Notes: a model not told the origin generated them from the sequence alone. 64,000 bases of DNA from Dehalococcoidia bacterium (GCA_965197585.1 OZ240215.1:1024001-1088000); one strand, 5' to 3'; shown: positions 14,779 through 58,877, counted from the first letter of the stretch. Program-made: numbers and translations.

Positions 14779-16233
14779 ATGGCAGACATGCTCATAACTG
14801 GCGCCACCGTCATCACCATGGACCCCGAGAGACGGGTTATAGAGGACGGGGCGGTGGCCATCGATGGCGACCGGATTACCGCAGTCGGGAGCCGAGCCGA
14901 GATCGAGGCTGCCCACCCGGCTCCCACGGTCATAGACGCCAGCAGGATGGTCTGCCTGCCAGGTCTGGTCGACGTGCACGGCCATGCGGGCCACGCCCTG
15001 GTCAAGACCATGGACCACGACTCCTTTACCCGCTGGCGGGAAACCGTCGAGCTTATCTACGCCGAGGGTGTCGACGAAGAATTCTGGTACGCCGAGGCCT
15101 CGCTGGCCGCGCTGGAAAGGCTGAAGTTTGGGACCACCACCGGACTCAGCTACTTCGGCGGTGGCCGAATGCTCATACGCACCGACGACCCGGTCTACGC
15201 AGAGCGGCACTGCGAGGCCGTGGCCGCGGTCGGCATCCGAGAGTTTCTGGCCGTGGGCCCGTGCTCTCCCCCCTTCCCGCGACGCTTTGTCCGGTGGGAC
15301 GCCGACGGCAAGAACGAATATCTCGCTGACTTCGATCGTCAAATGGCAACGACTGAGGACATCGTCAACAGGTGGAACGGCGGGGCCGACGGTCGTATAA
15401 GCGTCTGTCTGACCTCGTCGACGATGAACATGTCGCGGCCACCGTACGCGGGCTTGCCTATGAATGAACTGAAGGCCGAGGCACGGGCCGTCCGAGACTT
15501 GGTGGACCGGCTTGGAGTTCTGTTGACTCAGGATGGTCACAGCACCGGAACAATAGCGTTCGCTCATAAGGAGTTGGGAATCCTCGGACCGAACGTGATT
15601 CTATCGCACAGCGTGGGTCTCACCGACGAGGAGATCGCCATCTGCGCCGAAACCGACACAAAAATAGCCCACAACCCCAGCTCTCCAAACTCCTATCCGG
15701 CACGCTGCCCCGTACCCCAGCTTCTCGACGCTGGTGTGACGGTCGCCTTGGGGTCGGATGCGGCCTCACCGGACATGAACTACGACATGTTCCGCCACAT
15801 GTACTCGTGCATGAGGCAGCACCGTGCGCAGTTCGGCGAAGGGGCATACATCCCACCCGGAAAGGCCCTGGAGATGGCGACTATAGACGGGGCACGGGCC
15901 TTGGGGATGGAATCTGAGATCGGGTCGCTGGAGCCGGGCAAGAAGGCAGACCTGATCCTGGTGGACATGGACAAGCCTCACCTTTACCCACTAAACATGC
16001 CCGTCCACAGGATCACCAACTTCGCCGGTGGGCAGGACGTAGACACCGTGATAGTGGACGGCAAGGTACTGATGCAGGGCCGAGTCGTGAGCACGGTGGA
16101 CGAGTCGGAGGTTTTGGCTCGTGCGCAACAGGCAACCGAGACCATGCTTGAACGCACAGGCCTGCAATCAAGCCTGGGGATGGGAGAGGGGTTCTGGGGC
16201 AAGAGTCGTTACCCGGGGGCCTGGGACGAGTAG
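14779..16233 (+). CDS. Amidohydrolase, MTA/SAH deaminase/AtzA-like
   Basis: PGLVDVHGH, HNPSS, LGSD and GSLEPGKKAD motifs. Confidence 0.88.
   Translation: MADMLITGATVITMDPERRVIEDGAVAIDGDRITAVGSRAEIEAAHPAPTVIDASRMVCLPGLVDVHGHAGHALVKTMDHDSFTRWRETVELIYAEGVDEEFWYAEASLAALERLKFGTTTGLSYFGGGRMLIRTDDPVYAERHCEAVAAVGIREFLAVGPCSPPFPRRFVRWDADGKNEYLADFDRQMATTEDIVNRWNGGADGRISVCLTSSTMNMSRPPYAGLPMNELKAEARAVRDLVDRLGVLLTQDGHSTGTIAFAHKELGILGPNVILSHSVGLTDEEIAICAETDTKIAHNPSSPNSYPARCPVPQLLDAGVTVALGSDAASPDMNYDMFRHMYSCMRQHRAQFGEGAYIPPGKALEMATIDGARALGMESEIGSLEPGKKADLILVDMDKPHLYPLNMPVHRITNFAGGQDVDTVIVDGKVLMQGRVVSTVDESEVLARAQQATETMLERTGLQSSLGMGEGFWGKSRYPGAWDE
16159..16233 (+). repeat. 75-bp direct repeat, copy 1 (last 75 nt of the amidohydrolase gene)
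   Basis: ggcctgcaatc...ctgggacgagtag matches 17570-17644 at 71/75 positions. Confidence 0.95.
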
Positions 16234-16241
16234 GGGATAAA

Positions 16242-16688
16242 TTGAGCGTGACACAGGAAGACTTTGACGCCCTTCTCGCCGACGATACAAAGTCGATATT
16301 GGGAGACATTACATGGCGGAATGATGTTGACCATTCGCCAGCACAGGAATTCAGTGCAAAGGTTAAGACGGATGCCGGATATCGGCTATCCATAGAAGGC
16401 TACTATAACCCTCTAGCCGGCAAGCTCTCTTATGCGATAATTGTTCGTGGCGAGGCTCGCTTATATGCCCTTGATCTAGGCGCGGATCATCGTAATCCCG
16501 ACGGGATACGAGTAGGTGAGAAACACAAGCACTACTGGCGAGAAGGCTACCGTGACAAATGGGCATACGTTCCAAGGGATATCACCGAGACCTGGGACAA
16601 ACCGGTAGGCGTGTGGCGTCAGTTCTGCGTTGAGGCAAAGCTGTCGCATTCGGGTAAGATGTTGCAACCTTCAGTGCAGGGGGAATGA
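16242..16688 (+). CDS. DUF6978-like protein
   Basis: LDLGADHRNPDG..VGEKHKH motif; overlaps/abuts a DUF1828-like gene. Confidence 0.65.
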   Translation: MSVTQEDFDALLADDTKSILGDITWRNDVDHSPAQEFSAKVKTDAGYRLSIEGYYNPLAGKLSYAIIVRGEARLYALDLGADHRNPDGIRVGEKHKHYWREGYRDKWAYVPRDITETWDKPVGVWRQFCVEAKLSHSGKMLQPSVQGE

Positions 16689-16692
16689 TGCT

Positions 16693-17538
16693 ATGAATGC
16701 CATTGAACTCTGTTCATCCATCGCTATGACTATGCCGCCCCTATTCGAATGTTCACCGGCCCCACAGGAGGGCATTCGTGTGCGCACCCCCCTAATGTAC
16801 CCTGACGGGGGGATGATAGATGTATTTGTCTTGGAGCGCGACAAAGAATACATCCTTACGGACTTCGGCGAGGCATTGGGTTGGCTCAGAATGCTATCTT
16901 CCAATGCTCGACGAACAGCAAAGCAACAGCTACTGGTAGAAGACATTTGCCAGACTCTAGGTATTGAACTGTCTCGTGGGCAGCTGACGTTGCGATGCAG
17001 AATGCGGGCGCTGCTGGCAGAACACGTCCTCCGTGTTGCTCAAGCGGTTGTGCGGGTTTCCGACCTGTGGTTTACCCTGCCCAATAGGTCCCTGCAGGTC
17101 CCCGCTGAAGTGGCGGCGTTGGCCTCCGGGCCGCAGACTGCCCTGCGCGGTATGTCCCAGCAGGACACCGCCAACGAGGTCGACAAATGGCTGTCCGCAA
17201 GGAATATACATTTTGAACGTGAAGTTACTCGAACCGGTAGGTCGGGACAAAGCTGGAGGGTTGACTTTGAGACCTACACTTATGAACGTACGGCCCTTAT
17301 CTTTCTTTTGAGTGCTGGAAACCGTAGAGCTACACGCAGGATAACTGAGCACACCTTGGCTGGATGCGTAGACTTGACTGACCTACAGAACAACCGGCCT
17401 TCTCTAGTATTAGTCTCCCTATTCGACGATAGAAAAAACATATGGAGCGCACAGGATTTCACCTTGATGGATCGTTTTGCTAAAGTCGCCCGATGGTCGC
17501 AACAGGATGAACTGGAGCGCATCCTCACCACGAGATGA
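16693..17538 (+). CDS. DUF1828 domain protein with C-terminal restriction-endonuclease-like region
   Basis: RTPLMYPDGGMIDVFV...LTDFGE (DUF1828-like); C-terminal GRSGQSWRVDF. Confidence 0.7.
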   Translation: MNAIELCSSIAMTMPPLFECSPAPQEGIRVRTPLMYPDGGMIDVFVLERDKEYILTDFGEALGWLRMLSSNARRTAKQQLLVEDICQTLGIELSRGQLTLRCRMRALLAEHVLRVAQAVVRVSDLWFTLPNRSLQVPAEVAALASGPQTALRGMSQQDTANEVDKWLSARNIHFEREVTRTGRSGQSWRVDFETYTYERTALIFLLSAGNRRATRRITEHTLAGCVDLTDLQNNRPSLVLVSLFDDRKNIWSAQDFTLMDRFAKVARWSQQDELERILTTR

Positions 17539-17569
17539 CCATCCTCACCGAAACCGGTGTCGAGTGGGG

Positions 17570-17644
17570 GGCCTGCAATCGAGCCTGGGGATGGGGGAGG
17601 GGTTCTGGGGCAAGAGTCGGTACCCGGGGGCCTGGGACGGGTAG
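17570..17644 (+). repeat. 75-bp direct repeat, copy 2 (orphan amidohydrolase 3' end)
   Basis: Encodes GLQSSLGMGEGFWGKSRYPGAWDG*; 4 mismatches versus 16159-16233. Confidence 0.95.
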
Positions 17645-17668
17645 TAACCAAGTTGTTTTTATTGCCGC

Positions 17669-17674
17669 TATAAT
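17669..17674 (+). promoter_or_regulatory. Putative sigma70 -10 box for the LLM cluster
   Basis: Perfect TATAAT about 100 nt upstream of the ATG at 17771 in an AT-rich patch; -35 not clear. Confidence 0.45.
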
Positions 17675-17770
17675 GCAAGCCACCCTCGTCGCTTTGCGCT
17701 AGAGGGGCAGGCTTGGCGGCAAGGAAACGGAAAGTGTCCTCGGTTTGCGATTTCACCAGGAGGTGTAGGG

Positions 17771-18952
17771 ATGATAGAAAGATTTAGTATTCTGTATGCA
17801 GGCCACGTCAATGTCGATAATCTCGGATATGCCGGGACCCCGGCCAACGAGCGTTTTCTTTCGGACGAGGACCTCGCCTCGGCCCTCACCATTACCGATG
17901 AATTAGCTCAGACCGCCGACCGGCTCGGGTATCACACCCTGTGGATGGCGGAACACCACTTCCAGCGGGAAGGGTACGAGTGTCTGCCCAACCTCCTGAT
18001 GCAGAGCGTGCACCTGGCGCACATCACCAAGAACCTGAAATTCGGGTGCGCATTCAATGTGCCGCCCATGTGGAATCCACTGCGTCTCGCCGAGGACTAC
18101 GCCCTGGCCGACCACCTGACCGACGGCAGGGTCATCTTCGGGGTGGGGCGCGGGTATCATACCCGGGAGGTGGAGTCCTTCGGCGCGCCCATGCTGGACA
18201 GAGACGCGAACAGGGACTATTTCGAAGAGCAGGTGGAGGTCATTTTCAAGGCCTTTAACAACCGCTCCTTCTCCCACCACGGCAAATACTTCGATATCCC
18301 TCCCAAGGTGCCTTACCGCGGCTACGAATTGGAGGAAATAACCCTGGTCCCCAGGCCCAAACACCTGCCCGTTGAGTGCTGGCAGCCTATAGTGAGCTCC
18401 AACCCGCGAGGCATTGATTTCATGATCAAGCACGGGATCAAGGCCATCTCGGGTGGGGGCGCAGCCCCCGGCGGCGCCTCCCGGAGGGTTGTGGAGCTTT
18501 GGAGAGACTCACTGGTCAAGGCGGGCCGAGACGCGGCGCTTGGAGAAGACTTGATCATCGGCGAAAAATTCCACATAGCCGACAGCAGAGAGAAAGCCAT
18601 TGAAGAGGCTAGGCCCTACTTCGAGGAAAACACGAAGATGTTCGGTCCCTTGGGATTCGTCGGAGGCCTGACCGACGAGCAGAAGAAGGGCTTGGAAAAT
18701 CCGACACAGGAGCTTTGGGCCAGCCTGCCCACCATCGAAGACGACGTCCGGTCGGGGAACTTCCTGTGCGGCACTCCGGAGCAGGTAATCGAACCTCTGA
18801 TGCTGCTTCAGGACCTCTATCCCGGTCTGCGGGAGATCAACATCCAACCCATGATATCAACACCCTCGAAGGTCATCCTCGAGCAGATCGAGTGGTTTGC
18901 CAAAGAAGTGATGCCGGCTTTTCAGGTGAAACAGCCCAGTGCGGCCGGCTGA
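17771..18952 (+). CDS. LLM-class flavin-dependent oxidoreductase
   Basis: WMAEHHFQ, PLRLAED and FAKEVMP motifs. Confidence 0.92.
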   Translation: MIERFSILYAGHVNVDNLGYAGTPANERFLSDEDLASALTITDELAQTADRLGYHTLWMAEHHFQREGYECLPNLLMQSVHLAHITKNLKFGCAFNVPPMWNPLRLAEDYALADHLTDGRVIFGVGRGYHTREVESFGAPMLDRDANRDYFEEQVEVIFKAFNNRSFSHHGKYFDIPPKVPYRGYELEEITLVPRPKHLPVECWQPIVSSNPRGIDFMIKHGIKAISGGGAAPGGASRRVVELWRDSLVKAGRDAALGEDLIIGEKFHIADSREKAIEEARPYFEENTKMFGPLGFVGGLTDEQKKGLENPTQELWASLPTIEDDVRSGNFLCGTPEQVIEPLMLLQDLYPGLREINIQPMISTPSKVILEQIEWFAKEVMPAFQVKQPSAAG

Positions 18953-19015
18953 ATGGACGTAGAGAGCAATGGGCCTAGATTCCATCTCGACTCAGACTCG
19001 TAGGAGCAAGCGAAC

Positions 19016-20239
19016 ATGAAGGTTTCCTATTTCCATTTGATGCCGTACCAGGACCTGCCCCGGGACTTCGAGTCCCGGTACCACAGCGCGTGGGTCGACC
19101 TGCCCAACGAGCACTTCGACTCGGCGAAGGGTGGACAGTACTACAAAGACTACTTAGCACAGCTCCAGCACGCAGACCAGCTGGGCTTCGACGGCATCTG
19201 CGTCAACGAGCACCACGGCAATGCCTATGGCCTGATGCCCTCACCGAACCTGATGGCGAGCATCCTGACCCAGACCACGTCCGACGCGGCGCTCATAGTG
19301 CTGGGCAACAGCCTCGCTCTCTACCAGCCACCGCTCAGGGTAGCGGAAGAGATGGCTATGCTCGACATAATGAGCGGTGGCAGGCTCGTAGCGGGGTTCC
19401 CGGTGGGAACCTCGATGGACACTACGTTCTCCTATGGACAGGTCCCGTTGCAACTGCGGGAACGCCACGCCGAGGCACACGACCTGATTATGAAGTCGTG
19501 GACGGAGAGAAAACCCTTCGCCTTCAACGGGAAGTACACCAAGCTGCGGTACGCGAACGTCTGGCCCCGACCCCTACAGAAGCCTCACCCACCGGTCTGG
19601 ATACCGGGAAGCGGGAGTTTGGAGACGTGGGACTGGGTGCTTAACCACAACTACGTCTACTGCTACCTGAGCTACTTCGGGTACCAGAGGGCCGAGAAAG
19701 TGGTGCAGGGCTACTGGAACACCGTCGCCGAGCGGGGCATCGACGACAACCCACACAGGTTTGGGTTCCTTCAGTTGGTGTGTGTCTCGGAGACGGATGA
19801 GCAGGCGGAAAAGGACTACGCGGAGCACGTGAAGTACTTCTACCAGAAGATGCTCTGGATACACCCGCCCTTTGCGGAGGCGCCCGGGTACCGGTCGATA
19901 AACTCGATGCGGAATTCGGCAAGAGCGCAGACGGGAAAGGAAGCGGCAAAAGCAGCGCTGGAGATGGGCTGGAAGGACTACGTGGAGAAGGGGCACATCA
20001 TCGCCGGGAGCCCGAGCACCGTGCGTGAACAGCTCACCGACGCCGTCAAGAGGCTCAGGATCGGCCACCTGATGTGCCTGCTGCACATTGGCAGTATGCC
20101 CGACGATATAGCCCGCAAGAACACGGAGCTCTTTGCCAAGGAAGTCATGCCGGGCCTCCAGGGATTGTTCAGCGAGTACGACGACCCGTGGTGGCCGCAA
20201 GCCGTGTCGAGACCCGTGGCGGCTCCTACGGTAGGCTAA
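19016..20239 (+). CDS. LLM-class flavin-dependent oxidoreductase
   Basis: VNEHH, RVAEEMAMLD and PRPLQKPHPPVW motifs. Confidence 0.92.
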   Translation: MKVSYFHLMPYQDLPRDFESRYHSAWVDLPNEHFDSAKGGQYYKDYLAQLQHADQLGFDGICVNEHHGNAYGLMPSPNLMASILTQTTSDAALIVLGNSLALYQPPLRVAEEMAMLDIMSGGRLVAGFPVGTSMDTTFSYGQVPLQLRERHAEAHDLIMKSWTERKPFAFNGKYTKLRYANVWPRPLQKPHPPVWIPGSGSLETWDWVLNHNYVYCYLSYFGYQRAEKVVQGYWNTVAERGIDDNPHRFGFLQLVCVSETDEQAEKDYAEHVKYFYQKMLWIHPPFAEAPGYRSINSMRNSARAQTGKEAAKAALEMGWKDYVEKGHIIAGSPSTVREQLTDAVKRLRIGHLMCLLHIGSMPDDIARKNTELFAKEVMPGLQGLFSEYDDPWWPQAVSRPVAAPTVG

Positions 20240-24321: not shown

Positions 24322-25311
24322 TTATGCCTTCTCGACGGCAGGAATGATCTCCTTGGCGAAAATCTCGGACTGGTCCAGCATGTCCTGGAAATCGTCTGTG
24401 GCGGTGTGCATCACGATGAAGTGGTCGACGCCCATCTTCTTTAGCCCGACCAATCTTTCGATGATCTCGTCCGTAGTCCCAATCCAGTGACCGCTCACCA
24501 GGTCCTCGGTGGGGGTGTTCCTACGGAAGTAGCCGAGAGTGCTGTCCTGGTAGCGCTTGACCGCCAGATCATGGTCTTTTTCGACCCGAAGGTCGGCCCA
24601 TACGCAGAAGTCGATGTCGGAAATGGTCCTACCGTTCTCTTCGAGCATGGGGGCAAGAGATTTGAGGACTGTCGGGGTCTCGGGGTCACGGACCATGGGC
24701 CCGAGACCGTACTTGGCGGTCCTCCTGAGAGAAGCCTCGCCGTGGGCTGCCAGGTACATGGGCAGCGGTCGTTGCACGGGTTTGGGACTGAGCTCCATAC
24801 TCCCGAACTCCACGTATTTACCGGAATAGGAGGCCGGGCCATCGCCGTTTAGGAGCAATGCCAGGGCGTCCAACTTCTCATCGAGCATGTTTCCCCGATG
24901 AGCGCCTCGGCTCCGCGGCCTTACGGTGACGAACTCCTCCCGAGAGCCGCCGAGGCCCAAACCCAACAGGAACCGCCCATTGCTGAATTGGTCAAGGGTC
25001 GCCGACTGCTTGGCCAGGATGACGGGGTCCCGTAGAGGGATGATTACCACACCGGCGCCCAGTTTAATGGTCTTCGTGACGCCGGAAAGGCTGGCGAGGC
25101 TGATCATAAGCTCGTACCAGTTGGGCTCAGTGTCGTCGGATGGACGGCCTCTGAGGTCGGAGACCGGGGCGGTGAAGTCGAACCCCCAAAGGGCGTAGTA
25201 GCCGAGCCGCTCGGCGTCCTGGGCGAAGTGCACAAGCTCCGCAGGCCCGGCAAAGTTGGCCGGGACCAGGAAACCCTCCATGCAATTGGGCAGGGCGATG
25301 TCGAACTTCAT
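24322..25311 (-). CDS. LLM-class (possibly F420-dependent) oxidoreductase
   Basis: AERLGY, RDPVILAKQSATLDQFSNGR and PKPVQRP motifs; start reassigned to MKFDI. Confidence 0.88.
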   Translation of the reverse strand: MKFDIALPNCMEGFLVPANFAGPAELVHFAQDAERLGYYALWGFDFTAPVSDLRGRPSDDTEPNWYELMISLASLSGVTKTIKLGAGVVIIPLRDPVILAKQSATLDQFSNGRFLLGLGLGGSREEFVTVRPRSRGAHRGNMLDEKLDALALLLNGDGPASYSGKYVEFGSMELSPKPVQRPLPMYLAAHGEASLRRTAKYGLGPMVRDPETPTVLKSLAPMLEENGRTISDIDFCVWADLRVEKDHDLAVKRYQDSTLGYFRRNTPTEDLVSGHWIGTTDEIIERLVGLKKMGVDHFIVMHTATDDFQDMLDQSEIFAKEIIPAVEKA

Positions 25312-25477
25312 TGTTGTTCTCCGTGTGAGGGGTGGGGGCGGGGATGAGGTTATTCTAATGGGAGGGGGGTGGGTGAGCAATGGAGTCGTTCATAGCTAGG
25401 GGAGTCCTGTGTCGGGGCACGGTGACGATGGAGAATAGAAGGAGTGGGAAGCTAATGGAGGAGCGCAGGTGAGCCGG

Positions 25478-29915: not shown

Positions 29916-29985
29916 GGTTTGTCTCCGTGACAGGGAAAGTTTGGGTTGAGGCATGGTACTGAATCGGCAATGAAGATTCAATGAA

Positions 29986-30021
29986 GCATCTTGACATCAA
30001 CTTGTTGTGACACTAAGATGC
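29986..30021 (+). promoter_or_regulatory. sigma70 promoter with flanking inverted repeat (TA operator)
   Basis: TTGACA(29991)-17nt-TAAGAT(30014); gcatctt/aagatgc inverted repeat overlaps both boxes. Confidence 0.7.
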
Positions 30022-30025
30022 CTGC

Positions 30026-30286
30026 ATGAGAACTACCTTGACTTTGGACAATGATCTGGCCGAGGCGCTCAAAGAGCGATCCCGTCTCCTGGACGTGCCT
30101 TTCAAGCAAGTCGTGAACGACGTACTGCGTCGAGGGCTTTCGCTTGGCACAATTAAGGAAGCCCCGGCGAAATACAGGGTGAAGCCCAATCGGAGTGGCT
30201 TCCTTCCCGGTGTAGATCCATTGAAACTGAACCAACTCAACGACGAGCTTGAGGTCCAAGACTTCCTCGAATCGGAGCGCCGGTGA
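30026..30286 (+). CDS. vapB: VapB-like RHH antitoxin (DUF2191-like)
   Basis: MRTTLTLDND...FKQVVN..LRRGL; overlaps the PIN gene by 4 nt. Confidence 0.8.
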   Translation: MRTTLTLDNDLAEALKERSRLLDVPFKQVVNDVLRRGLSLGTIKEAPAKYRVKPNRSGFLPGVDPLKLNQLNDELEVQDFLESERR

Positions 30287-30708
30287 TTGTCCCCGACCTC
30301 AACCTGCTAGTCTACGCCCACAATGATTCCACTCCCTTCCATGACCCTGCGCTAGTATGGTGGGAAGGGCTGATTAACGGCTCTGAGAGGGTGGGGGTGC
30401 CGTGGATTGTTTTAGCAGGATTTGTGAGGTTGATGACGCATCGTCGGATGCTGGCGAATCCTGTTACGACCACCCAGGCAATAGACTACATTCGCGAGTG
30501 GTTCCGGTTTCCACACGTTATGCCGATCAATCCTGGAGTCGGTCACCTGGACCACTTTCAGAGGAACCTGAAGGCTGCCGGAGTGGGCGGAAACCTTGTT
30601 ACCGACGCCCATATCGCTGCCCTCGCCATGGAATACCAGGCTGAAGTACATTCCAACGACACTGATTTCAGCCGCTTCCCCGGCCTCCGTTGGCGTAATC
30701 CCCTTTAG
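30283..30708 (+). CDS. vapC: VapC PIN-domain toxin
   Basis: PDLNLLVYA, DAHIAALA and SNDTDF.RF motifs. Confidence 0.9.
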   Translation: MIVPDLNLLVYAHNDSTPFHDPALVWWEGLINGSERVGVPWIVLAGFVRLMTHRRMLANPVTTTQAIDYIREWFRFPHVMPINPGVGHLDHFQRNLKAAGVGGNLVTDAHIAALAMEYQAEVHSNDTDFSRFPGLRWRNPL

Positions 30709-34365: not shown

Positions 34366-36054
34366 TCAGGATACCATGTCACAACTGCGGAGGAGCTTAC
34401 CCGGAAGGGCGCCCGTGCAGTCGTTTCCTTCGAATGTAACTGCGCCGTTCACTAGTGTGTAGCGCAGACCCGTTGGTTTCTGGATGATGCGGCGTTCGCC
34501 GCCGGGGAAGTCGTGGGCGTAGATCATTTTGTCGTGCTGGAACCCGAGTTCGTCCAGATTATAGACCATCACGTCAGCCCAGTCTCCGACCCTGAGGGTG
34601 CCCCGGTCCTTAAAGTCGGCAAACCAGCCGGGAAGAGCGCTCATCTTGTAGTGGCCCTGTTCCAGGCTCATGATCTGTCTGTCCCTGATCCAGTAGGTCA
34701 GGAACTCTACGGGCCAGGTGCTCGTGGTGAGGTATCGGGTGTGGGCGCCGCCGTCGGACACGGAGACGTGACCGTAGGGGCTCAGGATGTTCTCGTCGAG
34801 AGGCCGGGGGTCGACGGGGTGGGCGAAGACGGTTTCAAGACCTTCGTCCAGGGCGAGGTCCAGGAAGGCGTCGACCGGGTGCTTGCCCTGGGCGGCGGCA
34901 ATCTCGGCTATGGTGCTGCCGTCGTACTTGTAGTTGCGCTCGTGCATGGTCTCCAGGACGGTGACCCGGGACCAGTCTGTGCGAAGGAGCTGCCGGGCGT
35001 CGGCGTCCCTCTTCATTTCGTCACGAATGTCGGGGTCCTTCAGCTTTAGGGTGCGCTCCTCTATGGAGCCAACAAGCGGGTTGACCCAGCCGGGCAGCGA
35101 GTCGAAGAGGTTGTACTCGGAGAGCTGGAACTCGGCGTTGACTTCCATCACCAGTTCCTGGGTGAAGAGGGGAAGGCCCTCAGCCCGCATCTGGGCGACC
35201 CACTCGTCCCGAGCAGACTCCTGCTCCAGGAGGACGTGAAGGGGCCGGCCACTGGTCCGCATCATCTGACTCAGGAGTTCACGCTGTTTGGCCGGGCTCT
35301 TTTCGGGGGGAAGGCCGCCGGACTGGGCTATGGTCCAGCCGATGTGGCCCACGCCGAACTCGCTGAGAACCTCGGACAGGCCGAGGTATTCCTCGTTGGA
35401 GGCTACGTGGCTGGGGAGCCAGGATCCGTCCTCGGGGCGGTCGCCGGTGTTCATGTCGGCGGAAAAGCCGAAGGCGCCGGCCTGCATGGCTTCGTAGAAG
35501 ATACGCTTCATCTCGTTCAGTTCGACGTCGGTGACGGAGGTGCGCTCCCTGGAGGCCATCATACCGATGACGTAGGCCCTCAGCGGCGAGAAGGGAAATA
35601 CGGAGCCGACGTTAACGCCGAGCCCCTGGTTGTCCAGGCTGTCCAGGTACTCGGGAAAAGTCTCCCAGTCCCAGCGCATCCCGAGCCGCATAGATTCCAG
35701 CGGAATCGCCTCGATGCGATTCATCATGCGCATGTTGAGTTCCCGGTCCTCGGGACGGGTGGGTGCGAAGCCGAAGCCGCACTGCCCGATGGTCAGGGAA
35801 GTGACCCCGAACCAGCCGGAAAGAGTGGCGTAGGGGTCCCAGTTAAGCTGGGCGTCGTAGTGGGTGTGGAGGTCGATGGCCCCTGGAGCGACGATACACC
35901 CCGAGGCGTCGATCTCCTTGGCGGCGCCTACAGGGATACGCCCGCTTATGCGGGCCACGCGCCCGTCCTTAATGGCAAGGTCTCCCCGGTACCGAGGGAT
36001 GCCGGTCCCGTCCACGATGGTCCCGCCTCTAATGACAACGTCGAACTCATTCAT
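34366..36054 (-). CDS. N-acyl-D-amino-acid deacylase family amidohydrolase
   Basis: GTIVDGTG, PGAIDLHTHYD, GQCG and SDGGAH motifs; ATG at 36054 with GGAGGA RBS. Confidence 0.88.
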   Translation of the reverse strand: MNEFDVVIRGGTIVDGTGIPRYRGDLAIKDGRVARISGRIPVGAAKEIDASGCIVAPGAIDLHTHYDAQLNWDPYATLSGWFGVTSLTIGQCGFGFAPTRPEDRELNMRMMNRIEAIPLESMRLGMRWDWETFPEYLDSLDNQGLGVNVGSVFPFSPLRAYVIGMMASRERTSVTDVELNEMKRIFYEAMQAGAFGFSADMNTGDRPEDGSWLPSHVASNEEYLGLSEVLSEFGVGHIGWTIAQSGGLPPEKSPAKQRELLSQMMRTSGRPLHVLLEQESARDEWVAQMRAEGLPLFTQELVMEVNAEFQLSEYNLFDSLPGWVNPLVGSIEERTLKLKDPDIRDEMKRDADARQLLRTDWSRVTVLETMHERNYKYDGSTIAEIAAAQGKHPVDAFLDLALDEGLETVFAHPVDPRPLDENILSPYGHVSVSDGGAHTRYLTTSTWPVEFLTYWIRDRQIMSLEQGHYKMSALPGWFADFKDRGTLRVGDWADVMVYNLDELGFQHDKMIYAHDFPGGERRIIQKPTGLRYTLVNGAVTFEGNDCTGALPGKLLRSCDMVS

Positions 36055-36143
36055 CTCTAATCCTCCACTACATGCACTTCGGCTAGGCTGGGGACTCCTC
36101 GGCATTATACAGAGGTTTGCGCTTCTCTGCCTTTATTTTCTGC

Positions 36144-38165: not shown

Positions 38166-38444
38166 GAGGCAACTTTACGGATCGCTCGCAGACATGTCCA
38201 CCCTGAATGTGGTCGATCAGTTGTAGGCGAGTCGACTCAATGGCTGATGTCTCGTGAGCATGGAACTACGCCCCCTTGTACAGCAAGTGCAGGTCGAAGG
38301 GCGGAATCCCAATCTCCAAGTAGTGGAGGGGCATCAGGCGCTGTCTCGACATTCTGTCCACCAGGGCTCGGCTAGCCTGACACCTCATGCACTCAACTTA
38401 ATGTAGATAAGTTCCAGGGCAGGCGGCTCCTGGACACTCCGAGG

Positions 38445-40632: not shown

Positions 40633-40863
40633 GTGATGCAGAGGACTATAAGGGCGAAATACAAAAATGGACATATTGTCCCCGTAGAACCGTTGGACAT
40701 GGAGGAGGGTAGAGAACTCCTGGTGACTGTGGAAGAACCGACTCATGAGAATGCAGATGCAGAGGACGCGGCCTTGGCTCGGGCGATAACCGAGGGCCTT
40801 GAAAGCGCGCCTGTCGACAAGGCGGAGGTAATAGGAATCTTGCAAAGCCCGGGTGAGGCTTGA
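40633..40863 (+). CDS. DUF104/AF2212-like antitoxin
   Basis: TIRAKYKNGHIVPVEPLDMEEG motif; overlaps a RelE-like start. Confidence 0.7.
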   Translation: MMQRTIRAKYKNGHIVPVEPLDMEEGRELLVTVEEPTHENADAEDAALARAITEGLESAPVDKAEVIGILQSPGEA

Positions 40864-51178: not shown

Positions 51179-54100
51179 TTGACTCCTTCATACAATCCCC
51201 GAATCGGAGCAGCGCTGGCCGTTCTCGTCATTGCGGCGAGTGTTTTCCTGGGATGGCCGGGATTACCCCTGCCCGCATGGGCGAATGGGGATGACTGGGG
51301 GATGGTCAAAATAAGTGAGGTCACCAAGACCGAGGCCAAGGTCACGATCACCTTCGTCGACGAAACCGCAACCGGTCTTGTTCATTGGCGATACCGCAAC
51401 ACCATGCCCGAGGGACAATGGCTCGGACTTGACGGGGTCTCGGTCATCGGCGGTATCTCCGTATTCGATATTGCTATGCTGAGCCCCGGGACCGATTATG
51501 AGTTACAAGTGTCTCTCGACGGGGATTTTTTGCAGACTGACATCCTATCTAAGAATTTCACAACCCTACCCCCCGACCCATCCGTTTCTGAAGTGATTGT
51601 TGAGAACGTCACCCTGACGGAGGCGACCGTCGTTATAACCATTGCCAACCCAGGTACTTCTTCCAAGACGGTACACATCCAATACCGCACCGACGACACC
51701 CAGCCCTGGAGCGATCCGCCAATCACCATAACCACCTCTACCGATACAGCAACGAAAACGCTGCTCAGCCTAAATCCCGGTACCCGCTACGAAGTGGAGG
51801 CCTCCCTGGGAGTCGGTTTCCTGTCCACCGAGACTGAATCCACGACTTTCACCACCCTCCTCCCAAGGGTCTCGGGTGTGAGCCTAGAAAATGTCACCAC
51901 TTCCAAAGCTACAGTCACGGTAACCATCGCCGAACCGGGGCCCGGTGAAAACAAGGTCTACTTGCGTTACAGCATCGTGCCTTCAACACAGATCTCTTGG
52001 ATTATCCCTTCTCCGAAGTCGGTGGTCGGAGATACAACAACCTTCGCGCTGACAGGTCTGGCCCCGTACTCCGAATACGAAGTGCAGGTGTCTCTGGATG
52101 GCTCATTCACCTCAGAGGTCGAGTCCGCCACCTTTACAACGGCAGCTCCCCCGAGCATCGGTTCGGTGAACATGGCAGATGTCGAGCAGAATTCAGCCAG
52201 TGCTATTGTGAGCATCTTCGACTCGGATGGGACCGCCGTAACCGTCCACCTGCGCTACCGCGAGACACCCTCTGGAGCTTGGATTGCGATCCAACACGAG
52301 ATAACTACGACTGAAGCTGCGGAATTCTCATTGTCGGGCCTGATGCCGGACACAGAATACGAGGTGGAAGTGTCGCTGGATAACGGCTTCTCTCTGGGTC
52401 GGTCCGCCACTTTTACTACCGAAGCAATGACGTCCAGGCCATCCTCACCAGTGGTTCGGGTCTCCGGGCTCTTCACAGAAGACATAACGCCTGGCTCGGT
52501 GACCGTGGTTGTATTGATCGCAGGCCCGGAAAACCGAGTAACGGTGAATTTGCGGTATGGGATCGAAGGCACGAATACGTGGAGCCGTACACTTCGCCGA
52601 ACCACCGCTACGGACACCGCTCCATTCGAGCTTGGAGGGCTGACGGCCGCCACGACTTACGATATAGAAGCGTCCCTATCCCCTGACTTTCCGGTCCACG
52701 AATCCGCGTACGATATCTTTACAACTGCCGCAATTAGTGTTTCGCGGCTCAGGCTGGTAGACATAACCGACACAGAGGCGACCGCGATTGCAGAGATTGA
52801 AGATCCCCAAGGCCAGACTACGGTCTTCGTGCGCTACATAGCCTTGGGAACGGGGGCTTGGAGCGAACCTCAAAGCCGAATTACTAGCTCCAATACGGTG
52901 CGTCTTTTCCTAGCGGGCCTCCTGCCGGATACTCAATACGAGGTGGAGGCCTCTTCAGAGGAGAGCTTCCCCGGTGATAACTCGGCACTCGAGACATTTA
53001 TCACCGAGCCCGCGCCCAGGGTCTCTGAGGCAAATGTGGAGGGCATCACCAATGTGTCCGCCACAATTGCAGTGGACATTGACAGCCCACAGGCTCAGAT
53101 GAAGGTATATCTGCGGTTCCGTGTCGAGGGTACAGGGACCTGGAGTACGACCAGAACCCGTACTACCTCCATACCCAGCGCTCGGTTTTCCTTAGCGGAC
53201 CTGAAGTCTGATACGGGATATGAAGTCGAGACGTCCCTTGACAAGGACTTCCCAGCAGACAGCACTGTATCTGTGGTCTTTTCTACGCAACCGAATCCCA
53301 AGGTCTCAGACGTGACAGTCGAGGACATAACGGAAAAGAGCGGGACTGCAATTGTGAAGATTAACGGGCCACAACCCCGGACAACGGTCTATCTGCGCCA
53401 CCAAGCCCATGGAGACTCGGCTTGGAGCGTGCCTCAAACCCGAACAACCTCTTTGGACACTGCGCGATTTACTTTGTCGGGTCTGATGCCGGACACCGAG
53501 TACGAAGTAGAGGTTTCACTGAATCACGACTTTGAGGAGCTTATTTCTGAGACCTTCCTTACGGCTGCAAAAAGGCCGAAGCCATCCTCCGTAACAGGAG
53601 GGCCTATTACGCAGACCACGGCCTCTATCATTGTGCATATAGACGACCCTCAAGGCAGTTTGACAATCCATCTGCGTATCCGAATTTGGGGCTCAAATAC
53701 TTGGAACAATCCTGAAACCCTCGTAACGTCGGCCTCCGCCGCTCCCTTCGACCTGAAACGCCTTACAGGAGGCACAACCTACGAAGTCGAGGTGTCCCTT
53801 GAATCAGCCTTCCCTCCTGCGGATACTGTTTCGGCCATCTTCACGACCACCCCTGCGACTAAGGTGTCGGGGGTGAATGTCGGAAGTGTTGCTGCAATAG
53901 AAGCCACCGTCACGGTCACAATTTCTCACTCTGAAGGGAATATCCGGACGGTCTATATGCGCTACCGCGGGCTGCCTGAGGGGGACTGGAGTGCAAGCCA
54001 AACGGAAACGGATGCGTCAACAGTGGATGCCCTGTTACCGGGCTTGATTCCCGATACTGAATACGAGGTACAGGCTTCGTTGTATGAGACTTTTCCGGCT

Positions 54101-54589
54101 ACCGACACCCAAGTACAGAGGTTCAATACTCTTTCCGCACAGCCCACGGAAATGCCAACCCCCGTGCCCGCAGCAACACCCACTCATACGCCTACCCCCG
54201 AACCCACATCAACACCCGAGCCCATATTTACCCCCGAACCAACCCCCACATCCACACCCAAGGCCGAGCCCACCATGACCCCCACTCCTCCACCCTCCCC
54301 AACACCCACGCCTCCACCGTCTCTCACCCCCACTCCCACGGCAACTCCCAGCCATACCTCCACCCCGACCAATACGCCCAAACCCGCCGAGACGCCTGCT
54401 CCCACGCCTACCACAATCCTAACTGCACCTGCACTATTTTCACCCACCTCTGCCCCTACCTCGACATCTCAGGCGGAGGAAGAAGAGACCGGGACAGACT
54501 TAGCCCTCGTGATCACCATAGTTACATTGGTCATTGCCTTTGCTATGGTGCTCGGCTTCTTCGTATACCGTCCGAGAACGGCGAGTTAG
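51179..54589 (+). CDS. Large surface protein: signal peptide, 10 FN3-like repeats, Pro/Thr stalk, C-terminal TM anchor
   Basis: Ten L.P.T.YEVE.SL motifs about 95 aa apart; PT repeats at about 54140-54470; hydrophobic C-terminus followed by YRPR. Confidence 0.85.
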   Translation: MTPSYNPRIGAALAVLVIAASVFLGWPGLPLPAWANGDDWGMVKISEVTKTEAKVTITFVDETATGLVHWRYRNTMPEGQWLGLDGVSVIGGISVFDIAMLSPGTDYELQVSLDGDFLQTDILSKNFTTLPPDPSVSEVIVENVTLTEATVVITIANPGTSSKTVHIQYRTDDTQPWSDPPITITTSTDTATKTLLSLNPGTRYEVEASLGVGFLSTETESTTFTTLLPRVSGVSLENVTTSKATVTVTIAEPGPGENKVYLRYSIVPSTQISWIIPSPKSVVGDTTTFALTGLAPYSEYEVQVSLDGSFTSEVESATFTTAAPPSIGSVNMADVEQNSASAIVSIFDSDGTAVTVHLRYRETPSGAWIAIQHEITTTEAAEFSLSGLMPDTEYEVEVSLDNGFSLGRSATFTTEAMTSRPSSPVVRVSGLFTEDITPGSVTVVVLIAGPENRVTVNLRYGIEGTNTWSRTLRRTTATDTAPFELGGLTAATTYDIEASLSPDFPVHESAYDIFTTAAISVSRLRLVDITDTEATAIAEIEDPQGQTTVFVRYIALGTGAWSEPQSRITSSNTVRLFLAGLLPDTQYEVEASSEESFPGDNSALETFITEPAPRVSEANVEGITNVSATIAVDIDSPQAQMKVYLRFRVEGTGTWSTTRTRTTSIPSARFSLADLKSDTGYEVETSLDKDFPADSTVSVVFSTQPNPKVSDVTVEDITEKSGTAIVKINGPQPRTTVYLRHQAHGDSAWSVPQTRTTSLDTARFTLSGLMPDTEYEVEVSLNHDFEELISETFLTAAKRPKPSSVTGGPITQTTASIIVHIDDPQGSLTIHLRIRIWGSNTWNNPETLVTSASAAPFDLKRLTGGTTYEVEVSLESAFPPADTVSAIFTTTPATKVSGVNVGSVAAIEATVTVTISHSEGNIRTVYMRYRGLPEGDWSASQTETDASTVDALLPGLIPDTEYEVQASLYETFPATDTQVQRFNTLSAQPTEMPTPVPAATPTHTPTPEPTSTPEPIFTPEPTPTSTPKAEPTMTPTPPPSPTPTPPPSLTPTPTATPSHTSTPTNTPKPAETPAPTPTTILTAPALFSPTSAPTSTSQAEEEETGTDLALVITIVTLVIAFAMVLGFFVYRPRTAS

Positions 54590-54641: not shown

Positions 54642-54652
54642 GGGAGGCTGCA

Positions 54653-54928
54653 ATGCCGAGGATACAACTGATACTCTCCGACGAAGAGCGAGAGCTGTTC
54701 AAGGCTCAAGCACATCGAGAGGGCAAGCCCCTTGATGAATGGCTGAAGGCTGCCGCTCGCCAGCGTCTCGGGTGGGCACCCCCTGCAACCAGGCCTGGCA
54801 GAATTGAAGACCTTGACGCGTTCTTCCGTAAGTGCGATGAGATTCCAGGACCCGAACGTGAACCCGACTGGGAGGAGTACAAGAAGCTGATTAATGAGGT
54901 GCGTCCGTCAGTAGCGGACGCCTCGTGA
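54653..54928 (+). CDS. RHH-type antitoxin
   Basis: MPRIQLILSDEER..F..QA.REG..L..WL..AA; overlaps the PIN gene. Confidence 0.75.
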   Translation: MPRIQLILSDEERELFKAQAHREGKPLDEWLKAAARQRLGWAPPATRPGRIEDLDAFFRKCDEIPGPEREPDWEEYKKLINEVRPSVADAS

Positions 54929-55308
54929 TTTTCGTCGACACCAACGTCTTCATTTATGCTGTGGGAAGCAGTCATCCGTTGAAGAGTCCAGCGGAGGAGT
55001 TTTTCCGTAGCGCTCGGGACAGCGGCACGTCCCTAGTTACCTCTGTGGAAGTACTCCAAGAGTTGCTCCACGTCTATCGACGCACTGGTAGACTTCAACA
55101 ATTGGATGATGCGATGTCACTGGTCACAAGTGACATCGCACAAGTGTGGCCTTTGGAGTGGGCGGATGTGGACAAGGCCCGACAACTCCACGATAGCTAT
55201 CCTGGACTGGCGACTCGAGACCTCTGCCACCTGGCAAGTTGTAGGAATCGGGGCGTTGAGACGATTATGACCTTCGACCAGCCTCTGCTTTCGGCGGCTA
55301 GCGCCTGA
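54925..55308 (+). CDS. vapC: VapC PIN-domain toxin
   Basis: FVDTNVFIYA, EVLQE, RDLCHLA and TFD motifs. Confidence 0.9.
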   Translation: MIFVDTNVFIYAVGSSHPLKSPAEEFFRSARDSGTSLVTSVEVLQELLHVYRRTGRLQQLDDAMSLVTSDIAQVWPLEWADVDKARQLHDSYPGLATRDLCHLASCRNRGVETIMTFDQPLLSAASA

Positions 55309-56486: not shown

Positions 56487-56515
56487 TCCAGGCCCGAGCC
56501 TTAAGGAGGCCCACA

Positions 56516-57619
56516 GTGTGCGCTATGCGATACCCGACCTGGGAAGAGTTTATGGGGGATTGGGAGGAGTTCATCAAGGGTAGCTTCGGGGACAGGCCTA
56601 TGTTCCCCACCCTCGCCCCCGAGACTCCAACCTTCATGGGATTGCCCGAGGCCAAGACGCCGGAAGACTTGAAGGGCGTTGACGCGGCGATAATCGGCGC
56701 GCCCTACGTGGCCACAACCCACGATACCTACGCGGGTGTGGACCGAAACGAGTGGCTTTCGGCGCCGAAGAGGGTCAGGCAGCAGTCGGCGCGATACCAG
56801 TCGGGGTACATCCAGGAGTTCCGGATGGACGTGTTTGATCACCTGAAGGTCGTTGACTACGGTGACGCTCCCATACCCGCCGAGGTTATGAGAGACCAGT
56901 CCCCCGAGAACATACTAAAGGCCCAGGCGGCCGTAGAGATGAAGGTGGGACAGGTGTTGGATGCAGGGGCCATTCCGGTGGTTATCGGGCAGAATTCTCC
57001 GTGCGGGTCCTATGCCATTGCCAAGCCGATAGCCGAACGTACCGACGGCTCCGTGGGATGCGTCAGCCTCGACACGCACTGGGACATCCAACCGATAGAC
57101 TTTCTGTCCCAGGACCCGAGAATCGCCGGCTCTGCAAGCTGGAAGCACAAGATGTACGAGTTCCACGAAAACATGCATCCCCAGCATCTGGTCGAGATTG
57201 GGGAGCGGGGGATGCTGGAGAGAAAGGATCTCGTCGAATCATATACCGACCGTGGGGCTCGGTTCATCTCCTCTTGGGAGGTGCGCGACGAGCTCGGCAT
57301 GAAGGGCGTGGCCCACGAGCTGGACCGGGCTTACAACGGCACGAAAGCCGTTTACGTACACTTCGACATGGACGTGATGGGCGGCGCGGGGCCCGCGCCC
57401 GGGGACATCCTCGGAGAGGCGGTGGAGCCCATAGGCCTATCCGACTTCGAGATCATCAAGATAGCCCATGAGGTGGGGAAGCGGGGGGTGTCGGGATTTT
57501 CCTTCATCTGCATCCCGCCCGGGTCCGCAGTGGTCTATCGGGTGATCGTCTACGTCATCATGTACATGCTCGCCGGGGTGGCGATGGCCAAGAGAGACGG
57601 GACTTACTTACTGAAGTAA
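56516..57619 (+). CDS. Ureohydrolase (arginase/agmatinase family), divergent
   Basis: PTFMGLP, VVDYGD, LDTHWD and VHFDMD motifs; AAGGAGG RBS. Confidence 0.85.
   Translation: MCAMRYPTWEEFMGDWEEFIKGSFGDRPMFPTLAPETPTFMGLPEAKTPEDLKGVDAAIIGAPYVATTHDTYAGVDRNEWLSAPKRVRQQSARYQSGYIQEFRMDVFDHLKVVDYGDAPIPAEVMRDQSPENILKAQAAVEMKVGQVLDAGAIPVVIGQNSPCGSYAIAKPIAERTDGSVGCVSLDTHWDIQPIDFLSQDPRIAGSASWKHKMYEFHENMHPQHLVEIGERGMLERKDLVESYTDRGARFISSWEVRDELGMKGVAHELDRAYNGTKAVYVHFDMDVMGGAGPAPGDILGEAVEPIGLSDFEIIKIAHEVGKRGVSGFSFICIPPGSAVVYRVIVYVIMYMLAGVAMAKRDGTYLLK
57582..57618 (+). repeat. 37-bp direct repeat, copy 1 (ureohydrolase 3' end)
   Basis: cgatggccaagagagacgggacttacttactgaagta matches 58841-58877 at 34/37 positions. 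Confidence 0.9.
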
Positions 57620-57645
57620 GATATGGAAATGCCGCGCCCGGCCTC

Positions 57646-58461
57646 TCACCGACCCGGCGGCCGCTGATCGGCTGGCAGTTCGCTTCCGCCGGTCCCGTGG
57701 GTGAAATCTTCACCCCATTCGTAGGGCAGGTCGGTGATCCGGCCCGGCTCATCGAGCGTGTTCAGAGTGCCGAGAGCGTCCTTGATGATGTTCATCTGGA
57801 GCTCTCTGTCGAACGGCTTGCCACATTGATGTCCCAAGGGGAAGTTGACGAACACCGGCCGGGGTGGCTTCACCTGAGCCATCATATCCCTGACCGAGCC
57901 TACGTACACGGTGCTAACGCCTACCTCTTCAACTACCCTCGCTAGCAGTCCAACGGACTGGTGGTCCAGCGGTCAGGCAGGTACACAGAAGAGGACGTCA
58001 ACCTTGGCCTCCTTGAGTTTTCTGGCGATCTCGGCCGCCAACTGTGTCTGGAGAGCTGTACGCTTGTACATTCTCCCCATTCCGAGTCCGTAGTTGATTT
58101 CGGCCAGTTCCCCTATATAGCCCTCCTGCTCCAACTCCCGGAATCTGTCTAAAGGCAAGATGACGTTGGGGTCCCGGTCGGCGTCACGGTGGTCATAATA
58201 GTTGTAGTTGATTATCAGGTCTTCGGTCGGGGTGTCTTTGGGGATCTCCCGGTAGCTTAGCTCGCTTCTGGCCAAGGGGTCGAAAGGCTCCTGGTCCCTG
58301 CGGGACATCCCGGAGGAGCAGAGCAGCGCCACCTTCGCCTGGTCGAGCGGCTTCTCGAACGGGCTCCAGGTCGTGGTGCGGAACACTGACCACTTGTAGG
58401 GTGGAAACCCGTGGCCTTGATAATAGGCGTTGAGGTTGGCTACGTAGTCTATGGGCTTCAT
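57646..58461 (-). CDS. GrdB/PrdB-like selenoprotein (271 aa, in-frame UGA = Sec at 57973-57975)
   Basis: Two predicted ORFs lie in one frame joined across TGA: ...VLFCVPA-U-PLDHQSVGLLARVVEEVGVSTV...PPR..FVNFPLGH.CGKP; D.DPNV..PLDR..EL..EG.IG; AAGGAGG RBS. Confidence 0.88.
57940..57971 (-). promoter_or_regulatory. Bacterial SECIS element
   Basis: After UGA: CGCUGG/CUAGCG lower stem, CAGUCC/GGACUG upper stem, GUU apical loop with G at +19. Confidence 0.8.
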
Positions 58462-58646
58462 CCATGACCTCCTTGTTATAGGGGCAATCCCCGCTCCGGC
58501 CTTTGCAGCCGTTTCAGCTTCTCTGGGGCCACCTCGACTGCTCCGGGGCTCCGTCAGCCTCACATTGACGACCATTTGCCGCCCGAGGCATCCCGGAACC
58601 GTTTGAGGGTCTACTCACTGAGGTTGTCGGGTCGATGTTAGCGACG

Positions 58647-58675
58647 AGTGTATCATTCGGAGTACCCTGCTTCAA
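58647..58675 (-). promoter_or_regulatory. Putative promoter of the selenoprotein gene
   Basis: TTGAAG-17nt-TACACT with extended -10 TG; implies a leader of about 180 nt. Confidence 0.5.
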
Positions 58676-58754
58676 ACAATCCGGACACGGGCAACGTCCA
58701 TCTTCAACTACAGACGTAGCGCCTACTGTTCCGTCTAGCTCACCCCACCAGGGA

Positions 58755-58844
58755 CTAGACTGTCATGTCGTAGCTGCGGCGCACCTTGTCGGGCAAGGCT
58801 CCAGAGCATTCCTGGCCCTCGAACGTGATGGTCTCGTTCACGAT
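58755..58844 (-). pseudogene. Orphan 3' fragment of an N-acyl-D-amino-acid deacylase gene
   Basis: Translates IVNETITFEGQECSGALPDKVRRSYDMTV*, aligning with LVNGAVTFEGNDCTGALPGKLLRSCDMVS* of 34366-36054. Confidence 0.8.
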
Positions 58845-58877
58845 GGCTAAGAAACACGGGACTTACTTACTGAAGTA
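58841..58877 (+). repeat. 37-bp direct repeat, copy 2 (orphan ureohydrolase tail)
   Basis: Encodes MAKKHGTYLLK* versus MAKRDGTYLLK* in the intact gene. Confidence 0.9.

Follow-up and report, generated by a model that had tools for sequence, protein, structure and literature searches.

In Dehalococcoides, genomic islands insert at the T-loop of ssrA, the gene for transfer-messenger RNA (tmRNA), where a direct repeat of 20 bp from the 3' end of ssrA marks their boundaries, and carry a serine recombinase module (McMurdie et al. 2011, PMC3146451). Some of these ssrA islands have no integration module and have been proposed to be cis-mobilizable elements (PMC3146451). Here we analyze 64,000 nt of a metagenome-assembled genome (MAG) of a Dehalococcoidia bacterium (GCA_965197585.1, OZ240215.1:1024001-1088000; this whole stretch, of 59% G+C, is called the window), in which two genes are each followed by inserted genes and then by a slightly diverged copy of their own last codons. 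We favor, with somewhat better than even confidence, the reading that both inserts are insertion-duplication (Campbell-type) scars, each left by one crossover with a DNA circle that carried the target gene's end.

Inserts between repeats of a gene end have been described in other settings. Cis-mobilizable elements (CIMEs) are decayed integrative and conjugative elements (ICEs) or integrative and mobilizable elements (IMEs), which have lost their integration genes but still carry, at the target gene's 3' end, the attachment (att) sites attL and attR (PMC5704250). In marine Prochlorococcus, degenerated elements of the tycheposon kind and partial tRNA or tmRNA copies lie beside island hot spots (bioRxiv 10.1101/2020.12.28.424599). 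In Escherichia coli, homology-facilitated illegitimate recombination (HFIR) is an insertion coupled with a deletion at 3-10 bp of microhomology, and in the same experiments 56/60 recombinants had duplicated the homologous segment; the duplications of the 14 such clones that were sequenced measured 109-950 bp and were ascribed to a single crossover of a re-circularised molecule (PMC3240628).

Two repeated gene tails in the window

Two non-tandem direct repeats stand out above all others in the window. The features of the first locus (site 1) are as follows.

14779-16233 (+): host gene 1, an intact amidohydrolase (TRZ/ATZ-like) of 484 aa; Pfam Amidohydro_1/3
16159-16233 (+): proximal copy of tail repeat 1, the last 24 codons and stop of host gene 1; direct repeat
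16242-16688 (+): first cargo gene, PDC-M24A (DUF6978); PADLOC E 8e-61, Pfam DUF6978
16693-17538 (+): second cargo gene, PDC-M24B (DUF1828), 281 aa; PADLOC E 3.3e-77, Pfam DUF1828
17570-17644 (+): distal, orphan copy of tail repeat 1, with four differences and the stop kept; direct repeat

The two copies of repeat 1 (16159-16233 and 17570-17644) are 75 nt long, identical at 71/75 positions (95%) and spaced by 1411 nt, with a self-BLAST E of 8.7e-27 within the window. Two genes that run in the same direction fill insert 1 (16234-17569); the first starts 8 nt past the stop codon of host gene 1, the second follows after 4 nt, and together they match a complete, adjacent PDC-M24A/B profile pair. 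As judged from these profiles, insert 1 carries a complete two-gene candidate defense system of PADLOC, PDC-M24, for which phage protection is only predicted; no literature was found under the term PDC-M24, and the 4 papers that mention DUF1828 or DUF6978 appeared unrelated. Downstream of the orphan copy, the native intergenic region leads to the next gene (17771-18952). We found no terminal inverted repeats or transposon ends for insert 1, only chance-size matches of 10-13 nt, and in its surroundings there was no terminator-like site and a single promoter-like match, which equals the shuffle expectation.

The nearest protein cluster of host gene 1 has 149 member sequences at 99% identity (its NCBIfam matches are of the chlorohydrolase/deaminase type and below cutoffs). 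The cluster of PDC-M24B has 1 member, on 3 contigs (longest 3,429,519 nt), and the homologues that follow share 76%, 74% and 71% identity with it; the protein has no match in plasmid and phage collections, and neither PDC-M24A nor PDC-M24B occurs in any of 80 fetched loci (described below). GC content is 0.528 in insert 1 versus 0.621 in host gene 1. The low GC content and the rarity of the cargo suggest that insert 1 is a recent, strain-level acquisition. If so, the 4/75 differences between the tail copies were more likely imported with the incoming DNA than produced by decay. Three of the four are synonymous third-position changes, a pattern too weak for use (~0.11 under a random-position model).

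The second locus (site 2) lies between an arginase-family gene and the tmRNA gene.

56516-57619 (+): host gene 2, arginase/agmatinase family, 367 aa; Pfam Arginase
57582-57619 (+): proximal copy of tail repeat 2, the last 12 codons and stop of host gene 2; direct repeat
57646-58464 (-): cargo 2, a PrdB/GrdB-like selenoprotein gene; Pfam GRDB, NCBIfam, read-through translation
58577-58840 (no strand): 264-nt segment found only in the window and one relative (L002); comparison with relatives
58841-58877 (+): distal, orphan copy of tail repeat 2, the trimmed end of an old pseudo-tail; repeat, and comparison with the relatives L001 and L003
58902-58930 (no strand): hairpin terminator rich in G+C, separating the distal tail copy from the tmRNA 3' end; sequence
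58944-59296 (-): tmRNA gene (ssrA), with its 3' end toward insert 2; Rfam RF00023, 144 bits, and ARAGORN
59356-59817 (-): smpB, behind ssrA; Pfam SmpB, E 7.7e-58

Repeat 2 (57582-57618 and 58841-58877) is 37 nt long, with 34/37 positions identical (92%), a spacing of 1259 nt and a self-BLAST E of 3.0e-7 within the window. From the end of insert 2 to the tmRNA 3' end there are 66 nt, holding only a spacer and the hairpin terminator, and a primer used for the ssrA repeat in PMC3146451 matches the tmRNA 3' end of the window. The part of the window from the arginase-family gene to ssrA has no recombinase domain, and neither do the open reading frames (ORFs) of L002 and L004 that were scanned.

Cargo 2 scores 166 bits against TIGR04483 (PrdB; cutoff 300) and 46 bits against TIGR01918 (cutoff 65.45) of NCBIfam, and its C-terminal part scores 44 bits against Pfam GRDB, above the cutoff of 22. 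By these profile scores it is a relative of the selenoprotein B family of glycine and D-proline reductases and not an equivalog. An in-frame TGA at 57973-57975 is followed, 13-30 nt downstream, by a predicted hairpin; the TGA, its flanking residues and the hairpin are kept in 5/5 genomes (the window, L001, L002, L003 and L008). No partner gene of the prdA/grdA type lies near cargo 2, which is likely a stand-alone selenoprotein of Dehalococcoidia. The cargo catalog of the two inserts is PDC-M24A/B for insert 1 and a PrdB/GrdB-like gene for insert 2.

An earlier note on this DNA (the original prediction) had described the same order of host gene, cargo and diverged tail copy at two places, and the repeats of 75 nt (95%) and 37 nt (92%) bear this out. 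It had also remarked on the absence of an integrase. Pfam scans agree: 0/90 window ORFs (25 + 39 + 26) have an integrase, recombinase, resolvase or transposase domain, and there is none in or near either insert. From the lack of similarity between the two repeats the note concluded that no single att site was at work; the repeats are indeed unrelated, but at site 2 an att-type site, the tmRNA 3' end, is probably involved.

Site 2 in related genomes

Using the arginase-family gene as query, we fetched 80 related loci, which lie around its homologues and not around site 1. L001-L008 are assemblies of closely related Dehalococcoidia, several consisting of one chromosome-scale contig; their gene order is that of the window, and their orthologues of host gene 2 have 96-99% amino acid identity. 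A tree of the DNA of the M20-peptidase and arginase-family genes has two clades, one with the window, L001, L002, L003 and L008 and the other with L004-L007; the window and L001 are sisters. Support is 98/98 for this pair and for the first clade.

Occupancy of site 2 follows this division. The PrdB-like cargo is found in 4/8 close relatives (L001, L002, L003 and L008) at 92-97% amino acid identity, and L004-L007 have a flavin amine oxidase of 452-464 aa at the same place and no repeats. In L002 the tail copy and the tmRNA gene are separated by an additional ORF of 338 aa, and no empty site 2 was seen among the window and L001-L008. Since cargo 2 is present in all five members of one clade, insert 2 is old and vertically inherited. 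Site 2 is a hot spot of multiple events.

In L001 and L003, a decayed gene-end copy of ~140 nt replaces the 37 nt of the window, with a left boundary common to both. These pseudo-tails are 78-80% identical to the gene end (over 127-138 nt in L001), and the stop codon is lost in L001. L003 and L008 have a second copy of the terminator past the stop of the working arginase-family gene (31 nt, 94%, in L003). In L003 the homology runs on in register into ~23 nt of the tmRNA 3' end, reaching the T-loop or its vicinity; the tmRNA fragment matches at 21/28 positions, a score equalled by 1/500 shuffles. The corresponding fragment in L008 is too decayed (its score is equalled by 331/500 shuffles). The order in L003 is therefore working gene, spacer, terminator, tmRNA 3' fragment, cargo, pseudo-tail, spacer, terminator and tmRNA gene, with a duplicated block of ~235 nt on each flank of the cargo that consists of ~140 nt of gene tail, spacer, terminator and ~23 nt of tmRNA.

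Other members of the clade have lost parts of this block. The left terminator and tmRNA fragment are missing from the window, L001 and L002 (down to 26 nt past the stop), and the right pseudo-tail and terminator are missing from L008. In the window and L002, the 264-nt segment stands in place of most of the pseudo-tail, where L001 has ~152 nt, ~110 nt of pseudo-tail among them. The 37 nt of the window are thus a secondary truncation of a longer, older duplication. The original prediction had seen two accessory inserts of about 1.3 kb; its architecture stands, but insert 2 is not a recent 1.3-kb accessory insert.

The 264-nt segment is shared by the window and L002 even though the sister of the window is L001, which indicates recombination between lineages at site 2. 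Its antisense strand (58758-58841, minus) contains, upstream of the PrdB-like gene, a 28-codon orphan gene end resembling the C-terminus (34375-34452, minus) of the Amidohydro_3 gene at 34366-36105 (16/26 residues, E 6e-7). By this resemblance, the fragment is a second, unrelated gene-tail scrap at site 2.

Frequency of the signature and other genes of the window

To place the two repeats among the genes around them, we compared the last 30 nt of 57 chosen coding sequences (CDS) with the 5 kb downstream, using the upstream stretch as control. Only the tails at sites 1 and 2 stood out (2/57), with 28/30 and 27/30 matching positions; the downstream maximum of the remaining 55 CDS was 20/30 and that of the upstream controls 21/30. 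Each of the two tails occurs exactly twice within the window, and tail 1 is found in 0/80 of the fetched loci.

As a weaker third case, the original prediction had offered the end of the RtcB gene, echoed at 38266-38277 (-) with an offset of 167 and 11/12 matches. We rejected this candidate, since the echo is at chance level: longer tails gave best matches of 13/20 and 18/30, both elsewhere, and a uniform model expects ~0.6 such 11/12 matches over 57 x 5000 positions. Directly downstream of rtcB, at 36144-38165 (-), is a gene whose 673-aa product combines a P-loop region with a PLD-type nuclease domain (NgoFVII-like). Its PADLOC matches are weak only (mad8, ZacB), and it may be a stand-alone defense-type gene.

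A repeat scan covered the window and the 80 loci, 1,360,442 nt in total (~545 kb Chloroflexota, ~815 kb other phyla), and reached pairs up to 10 kb apart in loci of up to 21 kb. Since pairs more than 10 kb apart fall outside the scan, the sample is biased against full-size elements with integrases. Clean tail duplications were found at sites 1 and 2 of the window (site 2 also in L002 and, decayed, in L001 and L003) and in L009, L035 and L013. In L009, a Chloroflexota MAG, a 55-nt, 91% identical repeat of an alanine dehydrogenase tail plus 23 nt past its stop (564-618 and 2966-3020) flanks 2.35 kb with an M20-peptidase and arginase-family gene pair; the homologous pair is the host side at site 2 of the window. 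In L035 (Alphaproteobacteria), a 34-nt tail (91%) flanks a znu-like ABC operon of 3.6 kb, and in L013 (Alphaproteobacteria) the tail repeat is 147 nt long (80%). No Pfam integrase domain was found in the cargo ORFs scanned from L002, L004, L009, L013 and L035.

Some repeat pairs were set aside. Those of L025 (28 nt, 96%), L043 and L050, and other weak pairs, were not counted, their host ORFs being without Pfam support or unverified. The repeats of L019 were rejected as tail duplications because they belong to a multi-copy intergenic family; in this Dehalococcoidia locus (3490-17350) there are at least 6 copies in 14 kb, 25-135 nt long and 80-100% identical.

We also asked how other gene-sized differences look at their junctions. 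For the main locus we aligned nine genomes, for a paralogous one eight, and states were scored as present versus absent (gap of at most 150 nt). Nine gene-sized presence/absence events were found.

L002: events 1 and 2
Window 62223-62627: event 3, an RNase H-like (RVT_3) gene that the window, L001, L002 and L008 have and L003, L004, L006 and L007 lack
L008: event 4, loss of the right pseudo-tail
L020, L021 and L023, ~11059-12240: events 5-7, three different cargos of 1.0-1.2 kb
L016/L025: event 8
L026: event 9

The junction-repeat scores of all nine events were 6-10, compared with 25-63 for the known cases and 6-11 (one at 15) for random position pairs. Of the three cargos of L020, L021 and L023, one encodes a double-NUDIX protein, and the products of the other two are unknown proteins that contain proline/threonine-rich regions. 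The cargos have no flanking repeats and lie between two convergent stops, which are 6-12 nt apart in the empty loci L016, L018, L022, L025 and L026. The RNase H-like gene at 62223-62627 adjoins a CT398-like zinc-ribbon gene and the RNase P RNA, and likewise has no junction repeat.

Given nine events without a junction repeat above background, and tail duplications in two alphaproteobacterial loci (L035 and L013), the signature is neither a general route of gene acquisition in this lineage nor specific to it, contrary to the original prediction on both counts. Tail duplication is an exception among the gene gains of the lineage, and it also occurs in another phylum.

Several other genes of the window are worth recording. 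A 161-aa ORF at 22418-22903 matches no Pfam family and has non-syntenic DNA relatives at 72-80% identity in L002 (14500-14765) and L005 (15570-16046); the L002 relative lies within a 1.1-kb insert between the tmRNA gene and smpB. A gene for a PIN-domain toxin (54925-55308), preceded by a small partner gene (54653-55308 together), lies just upstream of the M20-peptidase and arginase-family pair. A second PIN-domain gene (30283-30708, region 29978-30708) is adjoined by a small unannotated ORF on the opposite strand. The 1136-aa product of the gene at 51179-54589 has fibronectin-III-like repeats (282-nt period) and, at its C-terminus, a proline/threonine-rich tract; the repeat number varies among relatives, and L003 is without the region 52390-53597. 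Finally, four luciferase-like monooxygenase paralogues and several amidohydrolases are clustered at 13079-20239 and 24322-25380, presumably in keeping with the paralogue-rich catabolic content expected of SAR202-type Chloroflexota.

Origin of the inserts and comparison with known systems

In the insertion-duplication reading that we favor, the incoming circle would have carried the cargo together with its own, slightly diverged copy of the 3' end region of the target gene. A single reciprocal crossover inside the common stretch would integrate the circle, so that the cargo comes to lie between an intact host gene and the displaced tail. Selection would protect the host gene through its stop codon, and sequence past the stop would be free for trimming. 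The repeats would then seem to end exactly at the stop because selection keeps the gene and deletions remove the rest. Site 2 may have begun as an ssrA-directed island of the Dehalococcoides kind whose integration genes are since gone. Site 1 would have the same topology, with a tail copy brought from a relative ~5% diverged; the recombinase could have been a site-specific enzyme whose gene lies elsewhere or is gone, which would be a CIME-like state, or else RecA with the 75 nt of homology as its substrate. We infer the circular intermediate, the ssrA-recombinase origin of site 2, and both the recency and the donor of insert 1.

The structure that a single crossover leaves, an insert between direct copies with the host gene intact, is present at both sites, and L003 has the full form of ~235 nt. 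Reciprocal hybrids were sought between the copies of repeat 1, where one residue is informative. The orphan copy ends in ...WDG, as does the representative of the 149-member cluster, and the working host gene 1 ends in ...WDE, as displacement of the resident tail would predict.

Several points weigh against this reading. The ...WDG/...WDE contrast is a single residue at a position that is variable among homologues (G, D, A), so this hint is weak. The rarity of cargo 1 is expressed in cluster sizes (149 versus 1), not genome counts. No recombinase gene is present, and neither a circular form nor an empty site 1 was seen (the fetched loci are those of site 2). Pure site-specific integration at ssrA should duplicate ~20 nt of ssrA, not ~235 nt; the longer block needs an extra assumption, either captured flanking DNA or entry by homologous recombination. 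At 37 and 75 nt, the repeats fall short of the duplications sequenced in the cited E. coli experiments (109-950 bp; PMC3240628). L003 is the sole source of the putative tmRNA fragment, the L008 copy being too decayed. Lastly, a search of the window and L001-L008 for a second copy of the tmRNA 3' end with at most 6 ungapped mismatches gave chance-level matches only; the match in the window, at 40691, has 6 mismatches, and shuffled windows have 0-2 such matches.

A doubtful but serious competitor dispenses with integrases altogether. Re-circularised fragments from relatives would enter by a RecA single crossover on gene-end homology, and the resulting repeats would allow RecA-mediated excision and re-entry into other relatives, in a cycle that sustains itself. 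This amounts to the sequence-independent route of the original prediction, with single crossover in place of HFIR. This would account for five independent cases (insert 1, site 2 counted once, L009, L035 and L013) with no Pfam integrase in the tested cargo ORFs, and for cargo that is plainly metabolic, such as the M20-peptidase and arginase-family pair of L009 and the znu-like operon of L035. Block lengths of 34, 55, 75 and ~235 nt fit random fragment ends, and the 264-nt segment common to the window and L002 despite the sister position of L001 indicates that homologous exchange occurs at the locus. Re-circularised single crossovers also dominated in the cited E. coli experiments (PMC3240628). 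However, a classical recombinase site, the T-loop of the tmRNA, coincides with or adjoins the right end of the site 2 block, and a scan limited to pairs of at most 10 kb in loci of at most 21 kb would miss full-size integrase elements. Recombination on 34-75 nt is expected to be inefficient, which also counts against such a cycle, and the model leaves the origin of the first cargo-tail junction unexplained. Its broader form, in which cassettes of 1-4 kb loop out between tail copies and re-enter by RecA crossover in Dehalococcoidia and marine Alphaproteobacteria, we hold to be unlikely; the defense pair, the selenoprotein gene, the L009 gene pair and the zinc-uptake operon would be its examples. 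If true, integrase-free cassette cycling would help to explain gene flow where classical mobile elements are few.

The original prediction had named HFIR after transformation as one mechanism. In such an event, a linear donor with one homologous end would be joined illegitimately at its other end, upstream of the end of the anchor, so that a duplication results. The gene end is repeated on one flank only of each insert, as this would require, and the 264-nt replacement at site 2 (a gain of ~264 nt for ~152 nt) resembles the insertion-plus-deletion product that has been described. Yet HFIR products, as described in PMC3240628, have a deletion of about insert size and no duplication, the duplication there being the product of a single crossover, whereas both inserts here are flanked by duplications. 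We regard HFIR as improbable for the inserts themselves.

Slightly less probable again is an origin in situ, in which the tail and its neighbor were duplicated in tandem and the second neighbor copy was lost, or replication switched templates, copied in the cargo and resumed upstream, and the orphan tail then decayed. Variable block lengths, like those of long target-site duplications, and the decaying orphan copies of L001 and L003 (78-80%, with the stop lost in L001) would fit. However, cargo 1 is foreign in composition and rare relative to host gene 1, the cargo of site 2 differs between sister clades (PrdB-like versus amine oxidase), and 5% divergence is hard to reach by decay alone in an insert 1 that is probably recent. 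An assembly artefact or chance similarity, which the MAG source of the window might raise, has a negligible probability, as the repeat copies differ from each other (with E of 8.7e-27 and 3e-7), four other species, in independent assemblies that include several single chromosome-scale contigs, have the architecture of site 2, and the cargo 1 protein is on 3 contigs.

In the insertion-duplication reading, the echo of a gene tail is a mark of single-crossover integration, and its precision at the stop codon comes from selection and trimming, not from the insertion mechanism. Site 1 provides a clean natural example of a complete small candidate defense system (PDC-M24) as a 1.3-kb cassette. At site 2, a recombinase-less relic island beside the tmRNA gene, in a Dehalococcoidia group represented here by metagenome assemblies only, extends a pattern known from cultured Dehalococcoides.

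Site-specific integrative islands share the direct repeats (75 nt and 37 nt here), with one copy lying over the target gene's 3' end, but no integrase or recombinase gene was found in the window ORFs or in the scanned cargo ORFs of L002, L004, L009, L013 and L035. The E. coli single-crossover products are alike in having an insert within a direct duplication of the homologous segment, of variable length (PMC3240628); unlike that laboratory plasmid system, the events here are natural and the duplications measure 34-235 nt, with a donor that we only postulate. Tycheposon islands likewise occupy a hot spot beside a tmRNA gene where partial gene copies mark old integrations. However, site 2 duplicates the tail of a protein gene and has no recombinase, whereas tycheposons, as described in the preprint, carry tyrosine recombinases and have partial tRNA or tmRNA copies. 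In structure both inserts resemble CIMEs, being without integration or transfer genes and having kept their repeats, for which an att function is putative; they differ in their very small size and in the tight packing of intact genes, and insert 1 has no debris of pseudogenes. Descent from an ICE or IME is putative, as is mobilization by accretion with an incoming element.

The closest parallel to site 2 is with the ssrA islands of Dehalococcoides (PMC3146451). Both belong to the class Dehalococcoidia, insert 2 lies directly downstream of a single-copy tmRNA gene, and the putative degraded direct repeat of the ssrA 3' end in L003 reaches about as far as the T-loop. Site 2 departs from those islands in having no DsiB/DsiA serine recombinase or other integration-module gene, in a cargo of ~1 kb versus several kb, and in the L003 block of ~235 nt, which includes the terminator and the tail of the neighboring gene, compared with 20 bp of ssrA. 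In the window itself the ssrA repeat is gone. Set beside these systems, both sites are probably the outcome of a known kind of event and not of a new route of gene acquisition.

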